A stretch of 64,000 nt of DNA from Candidatus Muiribacterium halophilum (GCA_002869225.1 PKTG01000064.1:5097-69096), one strand, 5' to 3'. Positions 2,461 through 56,280 are shown, numbered from the stretch's first letter. Numbers and translations: made by a program. Notes: generated from the letters alone by a model not told the origin.

Positions 2461-2622
2461 AACCTTTAAAATAGTTTGAGACAAATTGAAAGTTGTTATG
2501 AATTTTAAGTTTAGTTAGCCGAAACATGACGCAGGACTAGCACCGCTAATTCAAGAAAAGTTGAGACTTAATAAGCTTAAAAGTCGAGCAAATTTCTTTT
2601 GGATTAAGCTGTTTTAAAGGTT
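2461..2622. repeat. 162-bp element closed by an 11-bp perfect terminal inverted repeat (copy 1 of 2); MITE-like element or structured RNA
   Basis: AACCTTTAAAA (2461-2471) pairs with TTTTAAAGGTT (2612-2622). The element is colinear with 24666-24825: shared blocks TTATGAA, CTAGC, TCAAG and AAGTT(T)GAG lie at nearly identical offsets. It starts 7 nt after the stop of the giant protease gene. Confidence 0.6.
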
Positions 2623-2628
2623 ACCTAG

Positions 2629-5600
2629 TTATCTTATTACTGCGAATTTTCCTTCTACCTCATGATGATCTGACCCGGACTCTACTTTCACCTTATAGAA
2701 ATAGACTCCATTTGCTACATACCTACCTCTTTTATCAGCAAGATCCCATATCATCGACTGATTAACTCCAGCTGCAGTAGTCCTTGCCCTATATATAAGT
2801 CTTCCAGATACATCATATATCTTCAGACTGACTCTGGAACCGGCAGGTGCGGTAAACCTTATTTCTGCAAAAGATGATGCCGGATTAGGATAAACTGCCA
2901 TTCCTGTAATAAGAGAAGCTGGTGCTATTCTAACTGTTGTCGATCTTTTGAGTTCATTACCCGCAAGATCCACTGCTTTGAAATCTATCTGATGGATACC
3001 AACTGGAAGTGCAAGTCTTCCTTTATGTGGTACTTGTGAAAATTCTTGTCCATCTATCTGAGCAAATACATCTTTAATACTACTTTGATCATCAGCATAT
3101 TCATAAAAGATATTATTACCATCTATTTCCCATCTTTTTTCAATTGGTTTTCCAGTATATCTTGCAACTACATATCTTCCGCTATTTCGTATTTTAAAAC
3201 TTCCATCATAAGATGCAACTGGTGATATAAGCTTATTATCTCTAAGTTTAAATAAAACCGCATTACTATGATCATTCCTTAGCATCACTGGAGAAGTAAG
3301 TTTCTGATTTATTGCAAGATCAAACACCTTATCCACTCTCAGCTGTTTGTTATTTTCTTTAAATGATGCCTCGGATATCACTGCAAATCCATCCTTAACT
3401 ACAGAACCTTTTTTAAATAACATCTGACCCGCGAGAGTATTTACAGCTTTGTCTTTTACTGGTGAAAGTAAAATTGTATTTATTTCCTTTGATACCATCT
3501 GAAGTCTTACTTCATTTGAATCATATATTCCAGCCGTGATTATCGGTGTACCGTCAGATTCTATAGAATAAACTCCACTATATAAATCTGATGTCTTTTT
3601 AAGAGCTCTAATCCTTTCAGGTGTTCCCTGAAACTCTATAGCTTCAAATTTAAGCGTAAGTCCAGTTGAGAGTGGATGTGAAAGTTTAGATACCATAGTA
3701 ATGGTCTTACTATCAGCTGGATTAAGAAAAACTGATAATCCAATACCATAACCAAGATCAAGTACTTTTGTTATTGTATCAACTACATTTCCTCTTTCAT
3801 CACGAACGTTTGATATACTAAGTGTATTTGATGAACTTCCTACAAATTTTTCATAAGGTACATCCACCTTTGCTTCTATTATACCAACTTCAGGATCACT
3901 TGTTGTTGGAAAAGCAAGATTTTTATACGAAACAATACTTGCCTTGACTCCGTTTACATAAACAGCAGGACTTGGATAAAATACATCCATAGTAACATTA
4001 AACGGGATCTTAAGATATATTTCCCAGTTTCCATTTCCATCTGCTTCTATTGACGATACAAGATTATTTATATCAAGTTCAGCGTTTTCAGTTGATACAT
4101 ATAATGAGTTTGTATACTTTTCATCTATTGTCTGAGTGAAAAGATTTATATCATCGATAACTGTCAATTGGAATTGTTTGTTATAAGCAGTATCAGTTGT
4201 TGGAGCATCTAGTACAAAGGAGAACTTGAGAGTCCCATTTTCTTTGACTGAGCTTCCAAAAGTAAGATAAACATAATGATTTAATTCGTCATAATCCAAA
4301 AGTACTTCATTCGCTGCAGGGAAACCTACTGTTATGACATCATAGGAATCTCCAGCAACAGATACTTCAGATGAACCAAAATCTGTATTATTATCAAATT
4401 CTGTTGGGATTTGAAGTCTCAACTTCTTTAATCCTTCATCATTTGAATTAAATTGCATATCAACTGAAACTTCAAATTCCTGATCAGCAGAATTTTTTAG
4501 CATGTAATTTGGAGTTATATAACCTCCTGCTACCGAGATCGCAGCTTTTGAATCTATCTGTAGAGAAAGCGTGGAATTAGTAGCTCCTGCATTACCTTCA
4601 GTTGCTTTTATCTGTCTATCATTTAAAGAATCGGATACATATACTTCAACTTCATTTGTAGTATAAACAGATTTTGAAGATGTATCAGCTGTAAATGCCA
4701 TTATTATCTTATGATTTGGTGCATCAGCAAATACAACTTTGCTGTTTAACAGGAAGGTATATGAGTTTCCACTGACAGAAGTAGTATAATCTGTCGTTGG
4801 TAATATTCCACCTTTAGCGGATAGTGAAGTAATTTCTATATCTGATAGATTTCCAGGTAATTTCACATTTACTTTATCAACACCAGATGAATAATCAAGA
4901 ATTGTTGGTAATATTGTTAGTGTAAACGCCTGATCATCTTTATTTATATAGGTTGTATCAGGATATATCTCGGCAACGGCCTGAGTAGCCGGGGTCGTAA
5001 CACAAGTTACAGTATAACTTTCTGAATCAGCTTCAGAACTTGCCTCACCCTGCTGAGAAGATACTGCAAAATCAAGATTATCAGTAAGCCAATATGCAGC
5101 AGCTTCTTCAAAATGATAATCAGCATACGAAGTAAAATCGACACCAGTATCTGTTGAGGTCGGTGCATTTATCTCCATACTTACCTTTAATGTACTATCA
5201 GCACTTACTGGGGTATCAAGTGATACATAAAGAACATCACTTTCCTCTCTGTAATCAGCAGAAAGTTCTACCTGACCATCATATACCTTTACATTTTGAA
5301 TATTTGAATATGTTGAAGGTATATTTATTGCAAGTAGATTTATGCCACGATTACCCGATGCAAAATCGAGTTTCATATAATAATCAAGAATATTTCCTGT
5401 AGAGTTTACCATGACAAGATTCTCATTATCTCCAGTAAATGATCCGTTAGAACTCTTTATATTAAGTTCGGATACTACAGAAGATACTGAATTTGCAGCG
5501 ATTATATTCATTCCGTTAAAGACTGATGGATTACCGCTTACGTCTCCAGGAGTCGCTTTTTGACTGACAACATCATTTGCAGGAGCTACAGTGTATGCAT

Positions 5601-11641: not shown

Positions 11642-11718
11642 TTTTCCCCCTATCTTAAGACAACTATCTTAGCTTCGTATTCCTGTCCATTTGAAAAGTC
11701 TATTTTCATAAAATAAAC

Positions 11719-14700
11719 TCAATTTGCTACACTCTTTCCTCTTTTATCCAATAGATCCCAGATAAACGATGATGTATTGTTTCTGCTTCTATATATCTTT
11801 CTTCCTGAGACATCGAATATATCAATGTCGAAAGTGCCTGCATATCCTGTCTCAACAAACATAGCATTGCTCACAGGATTAGGATATATCCTAATATTTC
11901 CTGAGAATGCTGGTGCTTTAATAAACAGTGTCTTTCTTGTCGTATTTCCAAGATAATCTACTGCCTCTATATCTATAATCGGACTTTTTGCGATGTTTCC
12001 GAACATTATGGTATCTTCGCTTATATTTAAAATATTACCGCTACCCTTTAATATTCTGGCTTCTTTTATGAAAGAAGCATCATTAAATCCTACTAAAAGT
12101 CTTCCTGTCGTATCAAAATTAGTATTATCATCTATTACAGGAGGAGTACTATCTTCAAAAACAGCTGCAGCAAATATTTTTTCATTTTTTCTGACCATCT
12201 CATAAGGTCTCCAGCCTTTTTCAGTAAGATAGAAAAGTCCATTCCCTTTTACCATATTCTTTATCTCGACTGATGGTGCATGGATCGCCTGATCAAATTC
12301 CACTACCTCATTTTTAAGTGTTAGTTCATTTGATGCTTTTTCAAGACCATTCAGAAGGTTTTTACCAACAGTACATCTTCTGCCTTCACTACTATCATCC
12401 AAATTGAAGAATACTCCGCTTAAGAGCTCATATCTTCCAGGTGCGGAAATGTTGTTCATAGAATACTGCGTATCTGTAAGAATAGTACCTGAACCATCCT
12501 TTATCTTTAAAAATACTGTAAGATCATATGAACTCTTTATTCTGTAATTTCCTGTATAAAGCTTTTTATTTCTAGCCTGTGTCAATGTTATTGATTCATC
12601 TGAAAAACCTGTCTCTCTAACAGAAGCCTCTATTGTATAATTTGAAGGAAGCTCAGATGAGGTGTTTACAATTAGTTTATATAGTTTTGTTTCAGCAGGA
12701 TTCCTAAAGAAAGTAGCCGCCACTCCAGGCGTTACATCAAATGAAAGTATACTGGCATTGACCCAGTTGCCTATATAATCTCGTGCATTTGAACAGCTAA
12801 GGTCTACCTTTCCTGTAAATTCTGTTGCTGATAACCATACATATCCTTCCCATACACCTTTTGAACTTTCATTATAAAAATCAATTGTAGTAGCATTCTT
12901 TTTCTCGACTTTCACAACAGGTGTTGGTCCTTGTATATCCATTGTGGTATTAAAGACAAGCTTTATTGAAAGCTTCCAGTTTCCTGACTGAAGCAGTTCC
13001 GCTACAATTGTTGAAGAACTTTTCTCAACTTCTGCTGAAGCTGTAGAAAGGGATAGAGTATCCCAATCAGTCGAATCTGAATTCGCATCTCCAGCTATGA
13101 CCGTATCATATACACCACTTACATCATCATACAATTTAGCATCAAAATCAAAGACTATATTTGTATTTGGGACATCAGCCGTGAATCTTATATGAATAGT
13201 TGAATCAGAGGTAAGTCTATTTGCTACATTAAATGTAAATACTAGTTTATCGGTTGAAAGTTCATATTTCACCTCGCCTGCTGCCGGTGCTCCGGATACA
13301 GTCGTATATTCTGTACTTCCAACATAAAAATAAGTAGTTGTGCTCGAAAGTCCCGAGAAACCATCCGGAAGAGGTACTTCTACCCTATCCACACCACCTG
13401 CATAGGTAGATATTTTCGCACCTATATAGTAATCAAAGACCTGATCATAAGTACCTTTAACAACATAGGATGGGACTATTTCAGCAATTGCGGAGTCAAC
13501 CGCACTGCTTGTTCTTATAAGGAGTGAATCACTTGGATTTAGCGCAGCAGCATCTCCCTCTACTAAAACTACCTCAACGGTAGAAGAAGAATTTCCAATA
13601 TACCCTGATACCGTCTTCCCATCTGGTATATCACTCGATGTAGGAACATCAGCATCGAAACTTATCTCAATACCTTTTTCAGGATAAAGATTCGTGATAA
13701 GATCCCCCGAAGTTATTATAAATTCATTGTTGTTTATCGAGACATTATATTCGCCGGCTGCAGGATTAGTGGATACTTTAGATAAAGCAGAACCACCCCA
13801 TCTCACAGACTGCATTGTAAGATCAGAATAAGTTGTAGGCATGATGACTTTAAGAATATCAATACCTGAATCCTGTGCTGTTATATCAGGAAGCACATTC
13901 ATAGTAAAGTTCTTGGTCTGACCTTTAAATACGGTTGAAGGAGTTATCTCAGCAAGAGCTCCTCTTGCAGGTACATCTATAACATTAAAAGTAAGTGACC
14001 TTGTCTCTATCTGTGCATAAGCATAACCCTGTGTGGCTGTTAACTCGAAGTAGGAATCACTTCTATAGGTCGTATTATCAACACTTACAGTTGCAACAAG
14101 TCCAGATGATGTCGCACCAGGAGCATCTGCTTTGAAACTGACTTCTATCGGCTGTGGCTCGTCTACTGCAGGAGTAAACTGATAACTTATCTCATTACCA
14201 ATTACACCTATTACAGCTGAACCTGTTACATCCTGGTCGTTTATACTAATAGAAGCACTTGTTCCATCAGGTGCACCAAACGCCGCTGGAAGTTCAACAG
14301 AGACTTTATTTATTCCTCTTTCAGTATTCGAGATAATAGGATAGATAGTAAATGTGAATACATTTGATGTTGATCCAACAATAACACTGTTATCAAGAAA
14401 TCTTATGCCGTTTTCGGAAGCAACCGTACCTTCAGCGACAACAGAAGAAGCTGCAGGTGCACAGACAACGTTAAGAGTGTTAAGACTCATAGAATCATCA
14501 GTTGCATCACCTTCCTGTCCATAAACAGCCAAAGAGTTACTCATATTATCTACATATATCTTAAAATTCTTTCCATCATCTGAAACAGAATTATTTGAGT
14601 AATCTGATACAGATGGCACCTGTGCATAGAAATCTACCGCAAAGTATTCATCAGCTGCGAGATTCTCACTTGAATAATCTGTTATATCACCGGCGGTATC

Positions 14701-17409: not shown

Positions 17410-19782
17410 CTAAGCAAAAGTAGATGTCTGAGCAATTATTGCATCATCCAATGGCTGCACTGGTCCGTCCTGATAAGAACCGGTTAATTTTGAATGTGTC
17501 AAATACGTTGTCCATGCAACAACCGCTACCATATAATCCTGCTGATCAGTCAATGAATCGATAATGACTTCATCTGAACTTGAATCCACTTCAACATAAG
17601 ATGCGGTTCCCAGATCTGCCTCAAGTATAGAAGCACTTCCCTGTTTATAGTAAACTCTATAGACTGATACGGCTGTCTCAGTTAAAAGATCATAACTTAC
17701 CTTTATCTTACCACCTGTATCCTTTGGAAAATCTATTGCCTCAACATTTGTAACTGCTGGAAGTACCTCTGTTGTAAAACTAAACTGATACTGTGTTTGC
17801 AATGGATTATTTGCCTTATCATCCACATCTGTGGTTATTGTCACTCTGTGCTCTATTCCATATTTCAGATCAGCAGATGGTTGTATCTTTATAATAGAAT
17901 TCCCACCTGAATAAGAATAAGATACTGTAGAAGCTACCGAAGACCAGCTTCCAGAGACATATTCCTCTATTATTACAGAAGATCCATCTACTGTAGTCGC
18001 ATCTAGTTCCTCGTTCATTGTTATCTCAATATCATTACTTACACTAATCTCAGTCTCACCAGTATCAGGTGAAGTAGAGACTACGTTAGGACCTGTTATA
18101 TCTGAAGTCAAAGATCTTATTGTAGCTGAATCAGGATCTTTGTTTCCTTCTGAGTCCTCAGCATAGACACGCCAATAATAAGTAGTTCCCTCAACAAGTG
18201 GTGCAGCACCCGGTAGATTATAAGATGTCACATCAGGTCCCAATGTATCAGTGTCATGTAAAGATGAAAATGAGTTATTATCATCTATCTCAAAAATATA
18301 ATGTGCTTCATCTGAATTTAGGTCCTGCCAGGCAAACGCAGGTGTAGTAGTATTTAGCTTAGCACCATCAGCTGGAGTCTGCAGTACGACTACTCCAGGT
18401 GCAGCGGAATCAATAGTTATTGTAAGCGAATTATCAGTTGCAGGATTTCCCGCTTGATCCTCAAGTCTAAAGGTAATAACATAATCATTTGCTGAACTAA
18501 CACCTGATATATTCCAAAGGTAATAATATACACCAGCTCCTTCATAAGACAGATTATATGTAGAATCAAATCCTGTTGTCGTTGATTTTATATTAACTGT
18601 TCTTGTAGTATATTCGTTTGTAGTAGCCTCCTGAAGATTAAGTCTTACAACAGGAACGGATGAGGAACCATAAATCTCATCATTATCCGTTGGATCAGCA
18701 TTATCCCATGAATCTACTGATACAATAGCAGGACCTTGAGTATCCACTGTGATCGTTCTGTATACTCCGGTCGTCTCGGATGGTCTATGAGGTCCTTCGT
18801 GTCCAACACCGTCTTTACCATAAACCTGCCAGTAGTATGTACCATCTGAGATTGATGATGAAAGTGTTATTGTATTTGTACTTCCATCTCCGGTTGACTG
18901 TGTCCTTACTATATTATTAAAATTCGCATCAGATGCGATTTCCAGAACATAGTCAGTCTCATCAGAGCCAATATCTGACCATGAAAAAGTTGGAGTATTA
19001 TCAGATGTAGTAGTACTATCAGCTGGGGATACCAAGGATACAGCTGTGACATCAGAGTTATCAGAAGTTATTTGAGGATACGCGTTTCTTTCATTTCCAC
19101 CATTATCCAGTACTCTTATAGTAACCTGTTTAAGTCCATCTGATACATTTCCACCTGTAAGATTCCAGGTAGCAGTACCGCCACTAAAAGTATCACATTC
19201 AACATCTGTATCACCAGCATTTCCCGTAATAAGGTGCACATCTGCTGTTATATTTGATTTCTGGATATTATTTGTATAATTATCACTAACATCGCAGGTT
19301 AAAGTTATAGAATCTCCCTGAGTAAAATAGTTTCCATGTGTTGCTGAAAGAAGAGACTCGTTGCTTATTGTTGGATTTGTCTTATCTATCTTGACCTGGA
19401 GAGACTGTGGAGAATTTGAAGAACCTGATATACTTACCGTTATTGTATAAGTAGTCTCATTAAAAGGTGAAATCAAAATAGTATTATTATTTATATAAGT
19501 GCCTGCATTGATCTCATAATAGCCATCCTGTGGACTTCCATCAGCTAATGTGCCCTCGGTAGGGTCAGGAAATCCTGGAGGAGCTGGAGAAACAGTTATA
19601 GTACCTGTCGAACCCTGATTCGATGAATCATATATCTGAACATAAATCGAATCGACTGAATCACCGTATACCTCATCGTTATCAGAAGTATCACTTGTAT
19701 TCCATGTATCCAGGGTTATAGCTCCCATTGATAAAATCGAGAAAATAAATAGAAATGATGTTAATAATATTTTTTTATACAT
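17410..19782 (-). CDS. N-terminal 790-codon fragment of the same interrupted giant surface protein (signal peptide, Ig/FN3-like and SbsA-Ig-like domains)
   Basis: Signal peptide MYKKILLTSFLFIFSILSMGA. Repeated TPxFxWxD..SDE..Y..EI......F ... YYWRVY domains also occur in the paralogue. It ends at a TAG in frame with the next ORF. Confidence 0.8.
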   Translation of the reverse strand: MYKKILLTSFLFIFSILSMGAITLDTWNTSDTSDNDEVYGDSVDSIYVQIYDSSNQGSTGTITVSPAPPGFPDPTEGTLADGSPQDGYYEINAGTYINNNTILISPFNETTYTITVSISGSSNSPQSLQVKIDKTNPTISNESLLSATHGNYFTQGDSITLTCDVSDNYTNNIQKSNITADVHLITGNAGDTDVECDTFSGGTATWNLTGGNVSDGLKQVTIRVLDNGGNERNAYPQITSDNSDVTAVSLVSPADSTTTSDNTPTFSWSDIGSDETDYVLEIASDANFNNIVRTQSTGDGSTNTITLSSSISDGTYYWQVYGKDGVGHEGPHRPSETTGVYRTITVDTQGPAIVSVDSWDNADPTDNDEIYGSSSVPVVRLNLQEATTNEYTTRTVNIKSTTTGFDSTYNLSYEGAGVYYYLWNISGVSSANDYVITFRLEDQAGNPATDNSLTITIDSAAPGVVVLQTPADGAKLNTTTPAFAWQDLNSDEAHYIFEIDDNNSFSSLHDTDTLGPDVTSYNLPGAAPLVEGTTYYWRVYAEDSEGNKDPDSATIRSLTSDITGPNVVSTSPDTGETEISVSNDIEITMNEELDATTVDGSSVIIEEYVSGSWSSVASTVSYSYSGGNSIIKIQPSADLKYGIEHRVTITTDVDDKANNPLQTQYQFSFTTEVLPAVTNVEAIDFPKDTGGKIKVSYDLLTETAVSVYRVYYKQGSASILEADLGTASYVEVDSSSDEVIIDSLTDQQDYMVAVVAWTTYLTHSKLTGSYQDGPVQPLDDAIIAQTSTFA

Positions 19783-22642: not shown

Positions 22643-22730
22643 ACTTTAACCTCTTTTTTATGATTACAATACTAGAGAAATTTTATCACTTTTTGTTATG
22701 ATAATCAAACTTGAGAAAGAGATAAGAACA

Positions 22731-22765
22731 GTGAATAGTGAGTAGTGAATGGTGAATAGTGAAAG
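22731..22765. repeat. in-phase heptamer tandem array (5 units)
   Basis: GTGAATA GTGAGTA GTGAATG GTGAATA GTGAAAG, intergenic. Confidence 0.8.
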
Positions 22766-24402: not shown

Positions 24403-24552
24403 GAATATCCTCTTGAGATTTTATTCCCTGATATTTTTTTTTCGGAAAAAAAAAGAACTTTTTTAAATTTAAAATTCAAAATTTTTTTTTGTTCTGTATT
24501 TATGCGGATTTGTCGCGGTAGACCGGTAATTTAAAAAACACCGTTAAATAAG

Positions 24553-24631
24553 GTTAGAACGTTAAGACGTTAAAAAGTTTCACTGGAATTAGTTTTTAGT
24601 TTGTAGTTTTTACTTTGTGGTTTGTAGACTT
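24553..24631. repeat. octamer array (GTTAGAAC GTTAAGAC GTTAAAAA GTTTCACT, 24553-24584) followed by heptamer array (TAGTTTT TAGTTTG TAGTTTT TACTTTG TGGTTTG TAGACTT, 24590-24631)
   Basis: Read directly. The 14-mer AACGTTAAGACGTT (24558-24571) is identical to 29440-29453. Confidence 0.8.
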
Positions 24632-24665
24632 CTTTTAAAATTCCTCTTTTTTAAGTTTTTTATAT

Positions 24666-24825
24666 CCCTTTAAATCAGTATATATTAGCTAACAGATTAT
24701 GAAGTATTCAATTTTTAGAAAAGTGAAAGCTGATAAAGTAATCCTAGCGGGCTTTCAAGGAAGTTTGAGCTATTATAAAATTTGAAGACAATTAATATGT
24801 AGATGATATATGCTGATTTAAAGGG
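24666..24825. repeat. 160-bp element closed by a 13-bp perfect terminal inverted repeat (copy 2 of 2)
   Basis: CCCTTTAAATCAG (24666-24678) pairs with CTGATTTAAAGGG (24813-24825). It is colinear with 2461-2622 and ends 5 nt before the stop of the 720-aa gene. Confidence 0.6.
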
Positions 24826-24829
24826 ACAA

Positions 24830-26992
24830 TTATTCTCCTAACAGGTCTTTGATCTCATCATCTGAAAGAATATCATCTCTTTTTATAGCTTCTTCTACCT
24901 TATCTTCAGAATCCTCACCTATCATTTCCTTAAGTTGATCATCTGTCATCATAACAGTTTCATCTATTTCCTGATTTATAAGGTTTGTAGCTTCTTTGAT
25001 TGCTTCATCTATATCATCATCTTCTTCTAAATCAGTTTGTGGTTCTGATTCCTCATCACCAGACTCCTGACTCGCGACTTCAGACTCATCCTGTTGCATT
25101 TCTTCACTTACTTGAGCTGCTTCCTCAAGAAGTTTGTTCATCTCATCTATCTCAGCCTGCTTTTCAGGGGTTATTTCTTCTACCGATTCCTCTGCCTCAG
25201 GTTCTTCTGCTTCAGGTTCCTCTGCTTCAGGTTCTTCTGCTTCAGGTTCCTCTGCTTCTGGTTCCTCTGCTTCAGGTTCCTCTGTTTCAGGTTCCTCTGT
25301 TTCTGGTTCCTCTGCTTCTGGTTCCTCTGCTTCAGGTTCCTCTGCTTCAGGTTCTTCTGCTTCAGGTTCCTCTGCTTCAGGTTCCTCTGCTTCTGGTTCC
25401 TCTTCCTCAGGTTCTTCTGCTTCAGGTTCCTCTGCTTCAGGTTCCTCTGTTTCTGGTTCTTCTGCTTCAGGTTCTTCTGCTTCAGGTTCTAGACTTTGTT
25501 CTTCAGATTCTTCAGTCTCTGTCGAAGTATCGGGTTCTTTCGGCTCTTCATCAGTTTCTTCAGATTCTTCAATACTTTCCGAATCTACCCATGGAGTGGG
25601 TTCCTCATCAGATAACAACTGATTTACAGAAAGAGCAAATATTTCATCAGAATGTTTCGAAATAAAACAGATATCACTTTTATCAGCAAATTTATCTTTT
25701 AGATCATTCACATCTTTTTCAAGTTCTTTATAGCTATTTATTTCCGTTTCTTGATCGATATTCCTACAAACTATTTTAAGAAAAAGTTTCTTATCCGGAA
25801 TTTCCTTTATAGAACTTGATTCAAGAAAATCCCCTACTTTAGTCTCAAAGTCGATTATTATATTACGACATATCTCTGAAATATCAAATGCGCTTGTTAT
25901 TCCCAGAAAGATACTGTCAGTTACATGGGCAAGATAAAATTCAGGATCCTTTTCATACGCGATATTAAATATCGTCTGTGTAACAAACCCCATTATATTC
26001 TCACCATATGATGCTCCATATTTATGAATATAATCATCCTGATTTTTCACATAAAAATAGGCTATCTGAGCCCCTTCTTCCTGTTTTATAACAGAATCGA
26101 CTTTTTCTGCTATTGAAGCAGATGTGGGAAGTCCGGTAGAAGGATGTGCTAACCTGTCCTCAAGTCTTGATGCCCATAGAAAATCAATCATATTATTAAA
26201 ATTCAGGACAAACTCGCCAAATTCATCATTTCTGTAATATCTTACTTTTTGTTTAAACCTACCTCTTGTTATGTTTCTGGCAACTGAAATAAAGTTTTTA
26301 AGTGGTTTGCTTATATAGTGAAAATAGAAAAATATTGTCATAAAAAGATGGATGATAGCTAAAATCGCTGTCCCAACGATTATCTTCTTGACCATATAAT
26401 AATTTGCATTAAGAATATTTGATACATCATAGAAAAATACCGTGACAAATGACACCTGACCGGCTTTTCTTCCAGCAGGTGAAATAATACGTATTATACC
26501 ATCAGAAAGTTCATTGTTTTTCATAAAATCTTCATATAATTCTATATAATGTTCTTTGTCTTTCTGATCGTCTTTAATTGCTATCTGTTCTCTTAAAAGA
26601 TAATCTGCAGGTTTTATATCAGATGTATATTTAATCTCCTGTGGAAGAACAAAAAATTCAGGCTTAAGATCATTTTTATATCTGCTTATGATCTTATCCA
26701 TACTTCTATTAAATACTACCATAGCCTTAATATTAGCATCCTGTTGAAACATCCTGTTAAAATAAGCTCGAAAATCCTCTGTAGGAATATCTCCTTTAAG
26801 CAATGTTATGGCTAGTTGATTTTTTTCGGATATCTTTTCTTTAAAACTATCGTAAACAATACCTCGCTGAATAGAAAAAACCATATATGCGACTAGTGAA
26901 GTGAATAATAATAGAAATAATATAGTTAAAGTCAAATGTGGGACAAATAACGGTCTATATTTTTTATTTTTTATCTTCCTGCTTAATTTCAA
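24830..26992 (-). CDS. membrane signalling protein: N-terminal TM/sensor region, HAMP domain, degenerate GGDEF-like domain, acidic (PEAEE)n tail
   Basis: HAMP pattern KPLKNFISVARNITRGRF...NDEFGEFVLNFNNMIDFL. GGDEF-fold pattern HPSTGLPTSASI...YFYVKNQDDYIHKYGASYGENIMGF, with VTDSIF in place of GGDEF. Confidence 0.65.
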   Translation of the reverse strand: MKLSRKIKNKKYRPLFVPHLTLTILFLLLFTSLVAYMVFSIQRGIVYDSFKEKISEKNQLAITLLKGDIPTEDFRAYFNRMFQQDANIKAMVVFNRSMDKIISRYKNDLKPEFFVLPQEIKYTSDIKPADYLLREQIAIKDDQKDKEHYIELYEDFMKNNELSDGIIRIISPAGRKAGQVSFVTVFFYDVSNILNANYYMVKKIIVGTAILAIIHLFMTIFFYFHYISKPLKNFISVARNITRGRFKQKVRYYRNDEFGEFVLNFNNMIDFLWASRLEDRLAHPSTGLPTSASIAEKVDSVIKQEEGAQIAYFYVKNQDDYIHKYGASYGENIMGFVTQTIFNIAYEKDPEFYLAHVTDSIFLGITSAFDISEICRNIIIDFETKVGDFLESSSIKEIPDKKLFLKIVCRNIDQETEINSYKELEKDVNDLKDKFADKSDICFISKHSDEIFALSVNQLLSDEEPTPWVDSESIEESEETDEEPKEPDTSTETEESEEQSLEPEAEEPEAEEPETEEPEAEEPEAEEPEEEEPEAEEPEAEEPEAEEPEAEEPEAEEPEAEEPETEEPETEEPEAEEPEAEEPEAEEPEAEEPEAEEPEAEESVEEITPEKQAEIDEMNKLLEEAAQVSEEMQQDESEVASQESGDEESEPQTDLEEDDDIDEAIKEATNLINQEIDETVMMTDDQLKEMIGEDSEDKVEEAIKRDDILSDDEIKDLLGE
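25186..25485. repeat. 20 tandem copies of a 15-bp unit (plus strand GTTCCTCTGCTTCAG), encoding (EEPEA)n inside the 24830..26992 CDS
   Basis: Counted unit by unit. Only a few single-base variants occur (T/C, giving E/T/A changes). Confidence 0.9.
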
Positions 26993-29359: not shown

Positions 29360-29440
29360 CTCCACACCTCGTTTTTTATTAACATACATACACTAGAAAA
29401 AATATTACCAGAATTCAACAGTAAAATAAAGACCTTATTA

Positions 29441-29480
29441 ACGTTAAGACGTTTGAACGTTTCAACGTTATAACGTTAAA
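29441..29480. repeat. five in-phase octamers ACGTTNNN in the trpS/cobO divergent intergenic region
   Basis: ACGTTAAG ACGTTTGA ACGTTTCA ACGTTATA ACGTTAAA. It contains four AACGTT palindromes. Confidence 0.8.
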
Positions 29481-29529
29481 TTGTAAACTTTAATTGACTT
29501 ATTATCCCAAAATTGTTTACAATTTTTTC

Positions 29530-43549: not shown

Positions 43550-43622
43550 AACGCCTCCTAATATTTTAAATAATTGTTACATATAATATATATCAAAATT
43601 ACTATTATGACAATATATTAGT

Positions 43623-43719
43623 GTGAGTAGTAAATGGTGAGCAGTGAATGGAAAAATTTTTTATCATCAGATTTTTTATCAATTGTTTACTATTTTAGGC
43701 TTTACACTTTACGCTTTAC
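43623..43719. repeat. heptamer arrays: GTGAGTA GTAAATG GTGAGCA GTGAATG (43623-43650) and GCTTTAC ACTTTAC GCTTTAC (43699-43719, opposite orientation)
   Basis: Read directly. These are the same two word families as at 230, 2324, 22731 and 60004. Confidence 0.75.
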
Positions 43720-43750
43720 AAAAAAAAGCCCCATTTGAGGGGCTTTTTAT
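43720..43750 (-). terminator. bidirectional rho-independent terminator downstream of fliY
   Basis: A-run, GCCCC (43728-32), loop ATTTGA, GGGGC (43739-43), T-run. On the minus strand it lies about 20 nt after the fliY stop. Confidence 0.7.
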
Positions 43751-43770
43751 AAATTTTATATTTAAAAGCT

Positions 43771-48337: not shown

Positions 48338-48540
48338 TATTCATCTCCCTCTTCTCTAAGACAAAATATCTTCCTTTTAAGCTTAATATATTTATCGACA
48401 ATTTCTTCAGGCTGCTCTTTTACAATAATTTTTTTACCGGTCGTCAAAGTTATAATAGTATCAGGACTCTTTTCCAGTTTTACTATAAGTTCGGTATTTA
48501 AATACACTTCTTTGCCGTTAAACTCAGTAAGACAGATCAT
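48337..48540 (-). CDS. flbD: flagellar protein FlbD
   Basis: MICLTEFNGKEVYLNTELIVKLEKSPDTIITLTTGKKIIVKE matches the FlbD pattern. AAAGGAGAGAG lies directly upstream of this ATG (the track ORF starts at 48570). Confidence 0.85.
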   Translation of the reverse strand: MICLTEFNGKEVYLNTELIVKLEKSPDTIITLTTGKKIIVKEQPEEIVDKYIKLKRKIFCLREEGDE

Positions 48541-48736
48541 ACTCTCTCCTTTCATAAGTAAAGAAACCAATACATATTACATAATACAAAATTGTTCACT
48601 AACAGTAAAATATTAAGACTGTTAAAGTTGAAAATTGGGAGTGCAGAGTTGCACAACGTAGTCGACAGGACCCAGAATATAAACTATCAATATTAAAAAA
48701 ATTTACTATATCTTTAAAATATATTTTTTTTTAGAT

Positions 48737-48772
48737 AAAAAAAAGCCGGTCATTAAAACCGGCTTTTTTTTT
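48737..48772 (-). terminator. bidirectional rho-independent terminator between flgE and flbD
   Basis: A-run, GCCGGT (48745-50), loop CATTAAA, ACCGGC (48758-63), T9 run. Confidence 0.7.
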
Positions 48773-48787
48773 AATTAATTAGCTATT

Positions 48788-53380: not shown

Positions 53381-53470
53381 CTCCTTTCAATTGATTTTTT
53401 AAACATAAACTCAGGTAATATATCGGCAAACCTGAAGTGATACTTTAAGTTTTATTAATAAAAATAAATA

Positions 53471-53502
53471 AAAAAAGGACAGATACCATCCGTCCTTTTT
53501 TT
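53471..53502 (-). terminator. bidirectional rho-independent terminator upstream of fliK
   Basis: The minus strand reads A7 GGACGGAT GGT ATCTGTCC T7 (8-bp stem with one G.U), 25 nt after the stop of the 53527 gene. Confidence 0.6.
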
Positions 53503-53526
53503 GCGAAGTTCTACCCTTGCTTTTTA

Positions 53527-54276: not shown

Positions 54277-54395
54277 ATTTACCTCCCTGTACCGTTCTTT
54301 AAAATCACCATAACAAATTACTATCGGCAACAGGTAATTTTTACTTTAACTTTTATTGATTTTTTTTTTTAAAACTTAACCTTTAAAATAGAAAA

Positions 54396-55934: not shown

Positions 55935-55995
55935 AAAGATTTCTGAACGGATAAGAAGAAGGCAGGTAAGCCTTCTCCGTGAACATCATACCCTT

Positions 55996-56187
55996 TTAGG
56001 CATAAAAATCCACATTTTTACCAAGTGGAGAGCTCTGCTGGATTCCCTGCATTGACTCAACCAGAGAAGATAGCAGATCACTCGAAGTCTTTTCCGAAAG
56101 ATCTAAAGACTTCTTAAGCATGTTAACCTGTATACTGTTTTGAACTCCACCTGATTGTAGCTGGTTCAAATCACCTGCTATTCTCAT
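55996..56187 (-). CDS. YjfB-like putative motility protein
   Basis: About 63 aa. ...SIQVNMLKKSLDLSEKTSSDLLSSL....PLGKNVDFYA matches the YjfB (PF14070) pattern. AGGTGA lies 5 nt upstream of ATG 56187. Confidence 0.65.
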   Translation of the reverse strand: MRIAGDLNQLQSGGVQNSIQVNMLKKSLDLSEKTSSDLLSSLVESMQGIQQSSPLGKNVDFYA

Positions 56188-56280
56188 ATATATCACCTGC
56201 CTTCGAATTCCTATCGTCTTTTTTCAAATCAAACTTTAGCTAAACTTGTGTAAAAACTAAATCAGTTGTATCATTTATCT

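Follow-up and report, generated by a model that had tools for sequence, protein, structure and literature searches.

Two homologous long-hairpin elements downstream of genes in Candidatus Muiribacterium halophilum, possibly an ERIC/MITE-like palindromic intergenic repeat

Two copies of a 162-nt element were found in a 64,000-nucleotide stretch of Candidatus Muiribacterium halophilum DNA (GCA_002869225.1, PKTG01000064.1:5097-69096; hereafter the window), each lying just past the stop codon of a minus-strand gene. Copy 1 (2461-2622) lies in the spacer 2192-2628 (437 nt), between the gene of a 2782-aa M6-peptidase/type IX secretion system (T9SS) protein and a methyltransferase gene. Copy 2 (24665-24826) lies in the spacer 24403-24829 (427 nt), between the gene of a 720-aa HAMP-domain protein and that of a 149-aa protein with no Pfam hit. 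Both spacers are unusually long, and the flanking genes are all on the minus strand. The original prediction had located copy 1 at these coordinates and copy 2 at 24666-24825, with their closing repeats, next to minus-strand stop codons at a distance of 5-7 nt. The copies, the repeats and the stop codons were confirmed, while the gaps measured 6 nt for copy 1 (TAA of the peptidase gene, 2629-2631, minus strand) and 3-4 nt for copy 2 (TAA of the HAMP-protein gene, 24830-24832, minus strand). The G+C content of the elements is 28-31%, in a genome of 34% G+C. The junctions, with a slash at the edge of the element, read TTGA/AACC...GGTT/ACCT for copy 1 and TATA/TCCC...GGGA/CAAT for copy 2. There is no conserved open reading frame (ORF): from the shared ATG, 6 codons can be read in copy 1 vs 28 in copy 2, and a coding role was rejected because these ORFs are not conserved.

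Over its full length, each copy forms a single long hairpin, imperfect and with about 59 pairs. The 11-13-bp terminal repeats that had been described are present, but they are the outermost part of pairing that spans the whole of the ~160 nt. The stem consists of a 19-23-bp terminal helix followed by shorter helices with small internal loops between them, and the apical ~50 nt is loosely paired, with several near-equal alternative folds. As plus-strand RNA, which is the more stable strand, copy 1 has a minimum free energy (MFE) of -50.2 kcal/mol (z = -5.6) and copy 2 of -51.0 kcal/mol (z = -6.9), and none of 200 shuffles equalled either value. A sliding 170-nt fold of both strands found no other single long hairpin in the window, and none of this family in the window and its flanks. 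A strong fold at 17580-17779 of the locus L001, which extends past the left edge of the window, was rejected as a member because it results from a (GGGGTTT)n array that pairs with C/A-rich sequence.

The two copies can be aligned over their whole length without a gap, with identity at 88 of 162 positions (54%). When compared with shuffled AT-rich sequence, as had been proposed, the alignment stood well above the shuffles (z = 7.6 for the global alignment; 0 of 1000 dinucleotide shuffles reached its score). Against dinucleotide shuffles, z is still 4.05 when the termini are left out and 5.0 for the apical part, and the interior similarity is gone when the relative orientation is reversed (z = 0.03). 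Two blocks are invariant. One is the 8-bp closing helix CCTTTAAA/TTTAAAGG, formed by 2463-2470 and 2613-2620 in copy 1 and by 24667-24674 and 24817-24824 in copy 2. The other is an apical 16-mer with the consensus TTCAAGRAARKTTGAG, which reads TTCAAGAAAAGTTGAG in copy 1 (2550-2565, plus strand) and TTCAAGGAAGTTTGAG in copy 2 (24754-24769, plus strand). Its 3′ half pairs with a conserved GAAAS, namely GAAAC at 2521-2525 in copy 1 and GAAAG at 24725-24729 in copy 2. In both copies, 79 nt separate the left terminus from the 16-mer and 57 nt separate TTCAAG from the right terminus. The internal blocks TTATGAA, CTAGC, TCAAG and AAGTT(T)GAG noticed earlier are present at approximately the offsets claimed. 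As judged from this sequence comparison, the two copies are shown to be homologous and co-oriented.

When the two folds are laid in register, they share 45 pairs, with 25 invariant pairs, 5 pairs changed on one side via G.U, and 15 pairs changed on both sides. In a control in which the 3′ partners were slid by 1-3 columns, the pairs changed on both sides fell to 0-2. Since the pair structure was derived from the same two sequences that are being compared, the count of 45 is a description rather than a statistical test. For pairing to be kept through 46% divergence, either selection on the fold or templated correction from arm to arm is needed. The co-varying 7-bp internal helix of the original prediction can be formed in each copy, but its left arms (offsets 53-59 and 60-66) are displaced by 7 nt between the copies and thus do not occupy the same columns. 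It is part of neither full-length MFE structure, and forcing it costs 3-5.6 kcal/mol.

The two strands do not fold equally well. The minus strand, which has the sense of the flanking genes, gives an MFE of -27.7 kcal/mol for copy 1 (z = -1.3) and -41.0 kcal/mol for copy 2 (z = -6.3). The mismatches of the stem, when read on the plus strand, are G.U rather than A.C in 8 vs 2 cases, and the remaining ones are G.A/A.G rather than C.U-type in 15 vs 3 cases. Both copies keep two of these features, namely the U.G pair of columns 15/148 and, next to the helix formed by GAAAS and the 3′ half of the 16-mer, the tandem G.A of columns 61-62/103-104. When the orientation of the non-Watson-Crick positions was randomised, the observed energy gap was reached in 0.25% of the copy-1 trials and 5% of the copy-2 trials. 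The bias points the same way in both copies, toward the plus strand, antisense to the flanking genes. Such oriented positions indicate that something acts at the level of a single strand. The rest of both spacers also has a G>C skew on the plus strand (+0.16 to +0.22, compared with a window value of -0.17 and with -0.13 in other spacers). With the hairpins included, the whole spacers 2192-2628 and 24403-24829 have a plus-strand G>C skew of +0.16 to +0.30. Thus, the strand bias may belong to the whole spacers and not to a plus-strand RNA. It was also observed that the sense strand past both genes is C-rich, G-poor and without an intrinsic terminator, which is the composition expected of Rho-dependent terminator regions.

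The termini are not confined to the two copies. A covariance model (R1) was built from the two copies, which it scores at 178 bits (copy 1) and 171 bits (copy 2). A third long hairpin of 122 nt (z = -5.6) lies at 18961-19083 of L001, about 6.8 kb past the left edge of the window. It has the closing helix CCTTTAA/TTAAAGG as in both copies and the outside flank AAAATTGAAAC as at copy 1; a GTGAGAN array lies upstream of the hairpin, and a convergent diacylglycerol-kinase gene has its stop codon 23 nt away from it. Its interior has no significant similarity to either copy (z = 1.7-1.9), and it was not detected by R1. It was rejected as a firm member on these z values and on a covariance-model E-value of about 1-10. 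A solo 14-mer reported by the original prediction at 54378-54391 (plus strand) is indeed an exact match to the terminus of copy 1 (AACCTTTAAAATAG). Its end lies 4 nt ahead of the ATG (54396) of a 512-aa gene; it has no hairpin partner, and its family membership is uncertain. Shared ends combined with different interiors fit a recognition of the ends. By a rough composition-based estimate, about 0.2 occurrences of CCTTTAAA/TTTAAAGG would be expected in ~3.4 kb of intergenic DNA, where 5 were counted.

A terminator scanner found no intrinsic terminator in either spacer. The hairpins themselves failed as intrinsic terminators, since the base of the stem is A-U rich and a sense-strand U-tract (UUUCAAUUUUUUG) follows copy 1 only; copy 2 is followed by A-rich sequence. 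In contrast, canonical GC-rich terminators with flanking A/T tracts are present at other genes of the window (43550-43770, 48338-48787 and 53381-53526). On the plus strand, no U-tract follows the hairpin, and no sigma-70-like promoter shared by both copies was found upstream. A TTGAAA that precedes copy 1 and the third hairpin was rejected as a plus-strand promoter because no usable -10 hexamer accompanies it. The sole promoter-like site supported by a relative is that of the methyltransferase gene (TTGACA-18-TAAAGT, 2227-2198, minus strand), which is conserved in the locus L052.

Is the element conserved in other genomes? Searches with the methyltransferase and the HAMP protein yielded the corresponding loci of relatives, while the last 200 aa of the peptidase, used as a query, gave only 3 weak, unrelated matches. 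Four more assemblies of the same uncultured organism (99.6-99.9% identity in the overlaps) each keep whichever copy they cover, and within the element they differ only at 2556 (A or G), which is the variable R of the 16-mer. A relative whose HAMP protein is 72% identical (L146) lacks the element in the orthologous spacer. In that locus, the ~140 nt beside the downstream gene, which are promoter-proximal, are well conserved, and 52 unalignable nt lead up to the stop codon, vs 286 nt in the window (the hairpin plus ~120 nt of arrays). In a more distant locus (L053, HAMP protein 39% identical), the spacer is 239 nt long and has a small ordinary terminator and no long hairpin. Thus, the element is probably not an old resident of the HAMP-locus spacer. 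The terminator of L053, a relative labelled Muirbacterium, lies at 12330-12360 after the HAMP gene (AAACCTTTGTAAATGCTAGGTTTTTTT), with a stem (AACCTTT/AGGTT) that is similar to the copy-1 termini. This likeness may be a coincidence, or the long hairpins may share their ends with local terminators. The element probably breaks short-read assemblies of relatives; the contigs L051 and L052 end in or next to the corresponding spacer.

In the ~88 kb of this genome that was covered, the copy count is two firm and one doubtful. With filters off, R1 found no more than the known copies in the window plus ~108 kb of loci of the lineage. Matches to motif patterns occurred at the level of chance. The pattern CCTTTAAANNAG-N120-150-CTGNTTTAAAGG gave 35 matches in the GTDB species genomes (one per species), all of them coding or chance matches without a long hairpin. 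The pattern CCTTTAAA-N-TTCAAG-N-TTTAAAGG gave 87 matches in the JGI metagenomes, none element-like, the most stable being GC-rich tandem palindromes. Three scans of IMG/VR gave chance matches only. Since the JGI collection does not hold the source contigs, these scans say little on the copy number in the source genome. No match was obtained by blastn of copy 1 against plasmids or of copy 2 against phages. Rfam gave 0 hits over the whole window at the gathering threshold and only noise over the two spacers at E <= 10, and a search for tRNA and transfer-messenger RNA found none.

What kind of element is this? My preferred reading, to which I give slightly less than even odds, is a lineage-specific ERIC/MITE-like palindromic intergenic repeat that is transcribed as part of the upstream gene's 3′ untranslated region (UTR), from where it can act on the 3′ end of the mRNA. 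It is most likely of the same general kind as the enterobacterial repetitive intergenic consensus (ERIC), also called intergenic repeat unit (IRU), and as Correia, RUP and other bacterial elements resembling a MITE, or miniature inverted-repeat transposable element. The element may have been gained by, or lost from, these spacers as a unit, and the likely route would be through an enzyme provided in trans and able to recognise the CCTTTAAA termini. Because the copies start 3-6 nt past the stop codon with no terminator between, they are probably transcribed as the first 160 nt of the 3′ UTR. At the mRNA 3′ end, the hairpin may serve as a barrier to 3′-exonucleases, as an RNase entry site or as a termination aid, as for co-transcribed ERIC and Correia elements. 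As the stem base falls inside the footprint of a terminating ribosome, translation termination could also be affected. Repetitive extragenic palindromes (REPs) near stop codons affect mRNA stability, and a REP effect on translation termination has reportedly been described by Liang, Rudd and Deutscher (2015).

The comparison with known repeat classes places MITEs and ERIC closest. The features given for the small-repeat class are terminal inverted repeats, target-site duplications, the lack of a transposase, and long stable RNA stem-loops; such repeats are often found at the 3′ ends of genes, are co-transcribed and affect mRNA stability (PMC3184786). Like MITEs, the present element has terminal inverted repeats (11-13 bp, extending to 19-23 paired positions), a non-coding core, a length below 200 bp, a stable stem-loop and an intergenic location. 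As with Correia/CREE, RUP and Nezha, sites filled in one lineage seem to be without the element in a relative, although the "empty" site has no clean boundary, and a second hairpin with the same termini and another core lies nearby. It differs in that the target-site duplication, which defines MITEs, is absent and no parent insertion sequence with matching termini is known. Apart from the target-site duplication, the listed class features are present or probable, so that the element looks like such a repeat and would work like one, but cannot be filed as a MITE. "MITE-like", as the original prediction had it, is therefore still the closest description on the grounds of terminal repeats, size, lack of an ORF, long stem-loop, position at gene 3′ ends and absence from the orthologous spacer of two relatives; the missing duplication speaks against it.

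ERIC/IRU elements are imperfect palindromes of ~127 bp. The present element resembles them in being an imperfect palindrome over its whole length, in the range of 100-170 nt, and in a probably transcribed intergenic location, often a gene 3′ end. Some ERIC hosts have few copies per genome. Wilson and Sharp (2006) are said to have described compensatory change that keeps the ERIC stem. Transcribed together with its gene, ERIC gives a long RNA stem-loop, and its effects on the decay of the upstream mRNA depend on its orientation (PMC3184786). The differences are the lack of a TA or other flanking duplication, the candidate-phylum host, a divergence between copies (54% identity) far greater than is usual within one genome, and pairing biased to the gene-antisense strand. 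A blastn search with copy 1 (word size 11) against 5,426 complete E. coli genomes gave no match, and thus no sequence similarity to ERIC was seen there. The "REPIN-like" alternative of the original prediction did not hold up: there is neither a doublet of short GC-rich REPs nor a GTAG/CGTC head. REPs are GC-rich sequences of 20-40 bp with GTAG/CGTC heads (PMC3733652), and REPINs are doublets of REPs (PMC3116915). The element shares with REP/REPIN an extragenic palindrome without target-site duplication, a single-strand hairpin and a position downstream of genes, and it differs in being an AT-rich (28-31% G+C) single hairpin of 162 nt with the termini AACC/TCCC. No RAYT gene is present in the window or flanks.

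Several observations weigh against an ERIC/MITE-like repeat. No direct repeat that could be a target-site duplication exists at any plausible boundary of either copy. No transposase, integrase or reverse transcriptase gene was found in the window or in an extra 16 kb of flanks (8.4 kb on the left and 7.7 kb on the right). In L146, the "empty" locus lacks a clean boundary and therefore gives no precise empty site. A divergence of 46% without a net indel is unlike that of decaying MITE copies. R1 found no more than two firm copies in the ~88 kb of this genome and no copy in 10 kb of a closer relative or in 33-38 kb of more distant relatives, and the three motif patterns found no further copy in 185,579 species genomes, the JGI metagenomes and IMG/VR. 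Finally, the weak minus-strand hairpin of copy 1 (-27.7 kcal/mol, z = -1.3) speaks against selection for a 3′-UTR hairpin. The structural claims made here rest on two sequences, and the acting strand, the mobility and any effects on the neighbouring genes are inferred.

The strand bias favours two other explanations, a plus-strand RNA and a single-stranded-DNA site. In the first, which I regard as unlikely though deserving attention, the copies are two paralogous genes for a stand-alone ~160-nt long-hairpin small RNA (sRNA) on the plus strand, convergent with and antisense to the flanking genes. Such an sRNA would possibly act via the apical motif and the G.A internal loops, for example by protein binding or as an RNase III substrate. 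The lower MFE of the plus strand (-50.2 vs -27.7 for copy 1, -51.0 vs -41.0 for copy 2), beyond what random orientation gives (p = 0.0025 and 0.05), the RNA-friendly mismatches with the conserved U.G and tandem G.A, and the plus-strand G>C skew opposing the rest of the window are all consistent with it, as is the preservation of length and of the apical 16-mer despite 46% divergence. However, neither a shared sigma-70-like promoter nor a plus-strand U-tract exists, the element is absent from the orthologous locus of two relatives, the covariation comes from two sequences only, and the rest of the spacers is equally G>C, so that the asymmetry may be a property of the spacer. No Rfam match was found, 6S RNA included. 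6S RNA and other long-hairpin sRNAs do resemble the element in being ~160-180 nt long and mostly double-stranded with internal loops, with a structure conserved above sequence, and diverged paralogue pairs in one genome are known (6S-1 and 6S-2 of Bacillus). The 6S covariance models gave no hit on either spacer even at E <= 10, and the element differs in lacking a large central bubble (its loose region is apical), in having no visible promoter or terminator, and in being absent from the locus in relatives. Thus, the "structured 3′-UTR/sRNA" proposed by the original prediction is in agreement with the 15 of 45 shared pairs changed on both sides and the non-random orientation of the non-Watson-Crick positions, but it is the gene-antisense strand that folds more strongly, this strand shows neither a promoter nor a terminator, and the same locus of a relative with a 72%-identical HAMP protein lacks the element.

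A broader version of the strand argument, about as improbable in my estimation as the sRNA pair, is that the element belongs to an undescribed class found in Muiribacteriota-related bacteria, either a ~160-nt long-hairpin RNA or a single-stranded DNA hairpin, that is selected on the gene-antisense strand, the MITE-like look being secondary. Such a class would be characterised by the fixed geometry, the CCUUUAAA/UUUAAAGG closing helix, the G.A loops and the UUCAAGRAARKUUGAG motif as a putative protein-binding platform.

The copies could also be a resident, non-mobile cis-acting device of the gene 3′ end that evolved in place, that is, an overgrown terminator or insulator hairpin in a C-rich, G-poor spacer of the Rho-dependent type; to this I assign the same low probability. 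Both copies begin 3-6 nt after the stop codon in equal orientation to the gene, and their two spacers have no intrinsic terminator, as opposed to the canonical ones elsewhere in the window. The mRNA-sense strand is C>G in both spacers, opposite to other spacers, and on that strand UUUCAAUUUUUUG follows copy 1 and GUUUCAAUUUUAUUG follows the candidate third hairpin. Copy 2, however, has no sense-strand U-tract, and shuffled sequence folds as well as the sense strand of copy 1. Moreover, homologous copies at two unrelated genes require duplication or transfer and not evolution in place, and the HAMP gene of the 72%-identical relative does without the element.

It is quite improbable that the hairpin is a single-stranded-DNA site for a structure-specific enzyme, such as an attC-like site, an IS200/IS605-type end (palindrome-associated transposable element, PATE), a REP/RAYT substrate or a single-strand initiation site. 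The preserved structure with diverged sequence, the strand-specific stability with conserved mismatches and the lack of target-site duplications would be expected of such a site. Sites of the attC type have R′′/R′ core sites (RYYYAAC...GTTRRRY), a length of 57-141 nt and a location at cassette ends near an intI integrase gene. Copy 2 has no GTT at its right end, copy 1 is imperfect and reads GTTACCT, the length of 162 nt exceeds that of attC, and there is no integrase. The neighbours are large chromosomal genes for housekeeping and secreted proteins (720-2782 aa) and not cassettes. Neither the window nor its flanks encode an HUH transposase, RAYT or Rep protein, and GTAG/CGTC heads are lacking. 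For a retron, the neighbours (M6 peptidase, methyltransferase, HAMP protein and 149-aa protein) include no adjacent reverse transcriptase. In addition, gene orientation and GC skew suggest that the better-folding strand has the sequence of the lagging nascent strand; it would then be the template of the leading strand and, as such, less exposed in single-stranded form.

It is very hard to believe that the resemblance is a chance similarity between two AT-rich palindromes: AT-rich inverted repeats are frequent in this 34% G+C genome (706 inverted-repeat pairs), but the shuffle scores, the dependence on orientation, the shared 79- and 57-nt spacings and the finding of only these two single long hairpins by sliding folds on both strands of the window all oppose it.

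Should the element represent a family of palindromic repeats, a candidate phylum with almost no described genetic elements would gain a mobile or ex-mobile type, and pairing in such elements would be seen to survive ~46% divergence with length unchanged. If the strand bias reflects a real plus-strand RNA, the copies would represent a new class of structured RNA lying tail to tail with genes, with a defined motif whose binding to proteins could be tested. Annotators should not take these spacers for simple terminators.

Short tandem arrays also occur in the spacers of the element. The original prediction had a short-period array 30-35 nt upstream of both copies on the plus strand. This applies to copy 2 (24590-24627), but not to copy 1, where the clear array (2331-2348) is 112 nt away. 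Arrays of period 7 were found in nearly all long intergenic regions of this genome and of a relative, in both orientations. Thus, they are not specific companions of the element, and they were rejected as a part of it. Further ones in the window lie at 235-293, 22726-22763, 43623-43651, 43694-43720 and 48569-48592, and outside it at 12357-12388, 17686-17730 and 18903-18929 of L001, 1-80 of L052 and 3270-3330 of L146. The units vary (GTGAGAA, GAATAGT, TAGTTTG, CGCTTCA and CCTGTTC), and the array at 17686-17730 of L001 is a perfect (GGGGTTT)x6.4. The period-7 arrays recall the heptanucleotide short tandemly repeated repetitive (STRR) sequences of cyanobacteria, and I know of no described function for them.

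Other repeats were noticed in the neighbouring genes and spacers. The HAMP-protein gene holds a 15-nt tandem repeat, TTCCTCTGCTTCAGG, in about 20 copies (25187-25489), and its number varies among assemblies of the same organism (709 vs 720 aa). Two giant genes for secreted proteins (2782 and 1847 aa) have 3′ ends, at 2699-2757 and 11711-11769, that are 78% identical over 59 nt, which corresponds to a shared T9SS C-terminal sorting domain (Por_Secre_tail). The strongest fold in the window is that of the spacer 55935-56265 on the minus strand (-102 kcal/mol over 331 nt); between two plus-strand genes, it includes a called 63-aa minus-strand ORF (15481-15672 of L143) and terminator-like hairpins. 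Finally, a period-8 array, TAACGTTA x5, lies at 29439-29480 in the divergent spacer between a tRNA-synthetase gene and the plus-strand gene at 29494.

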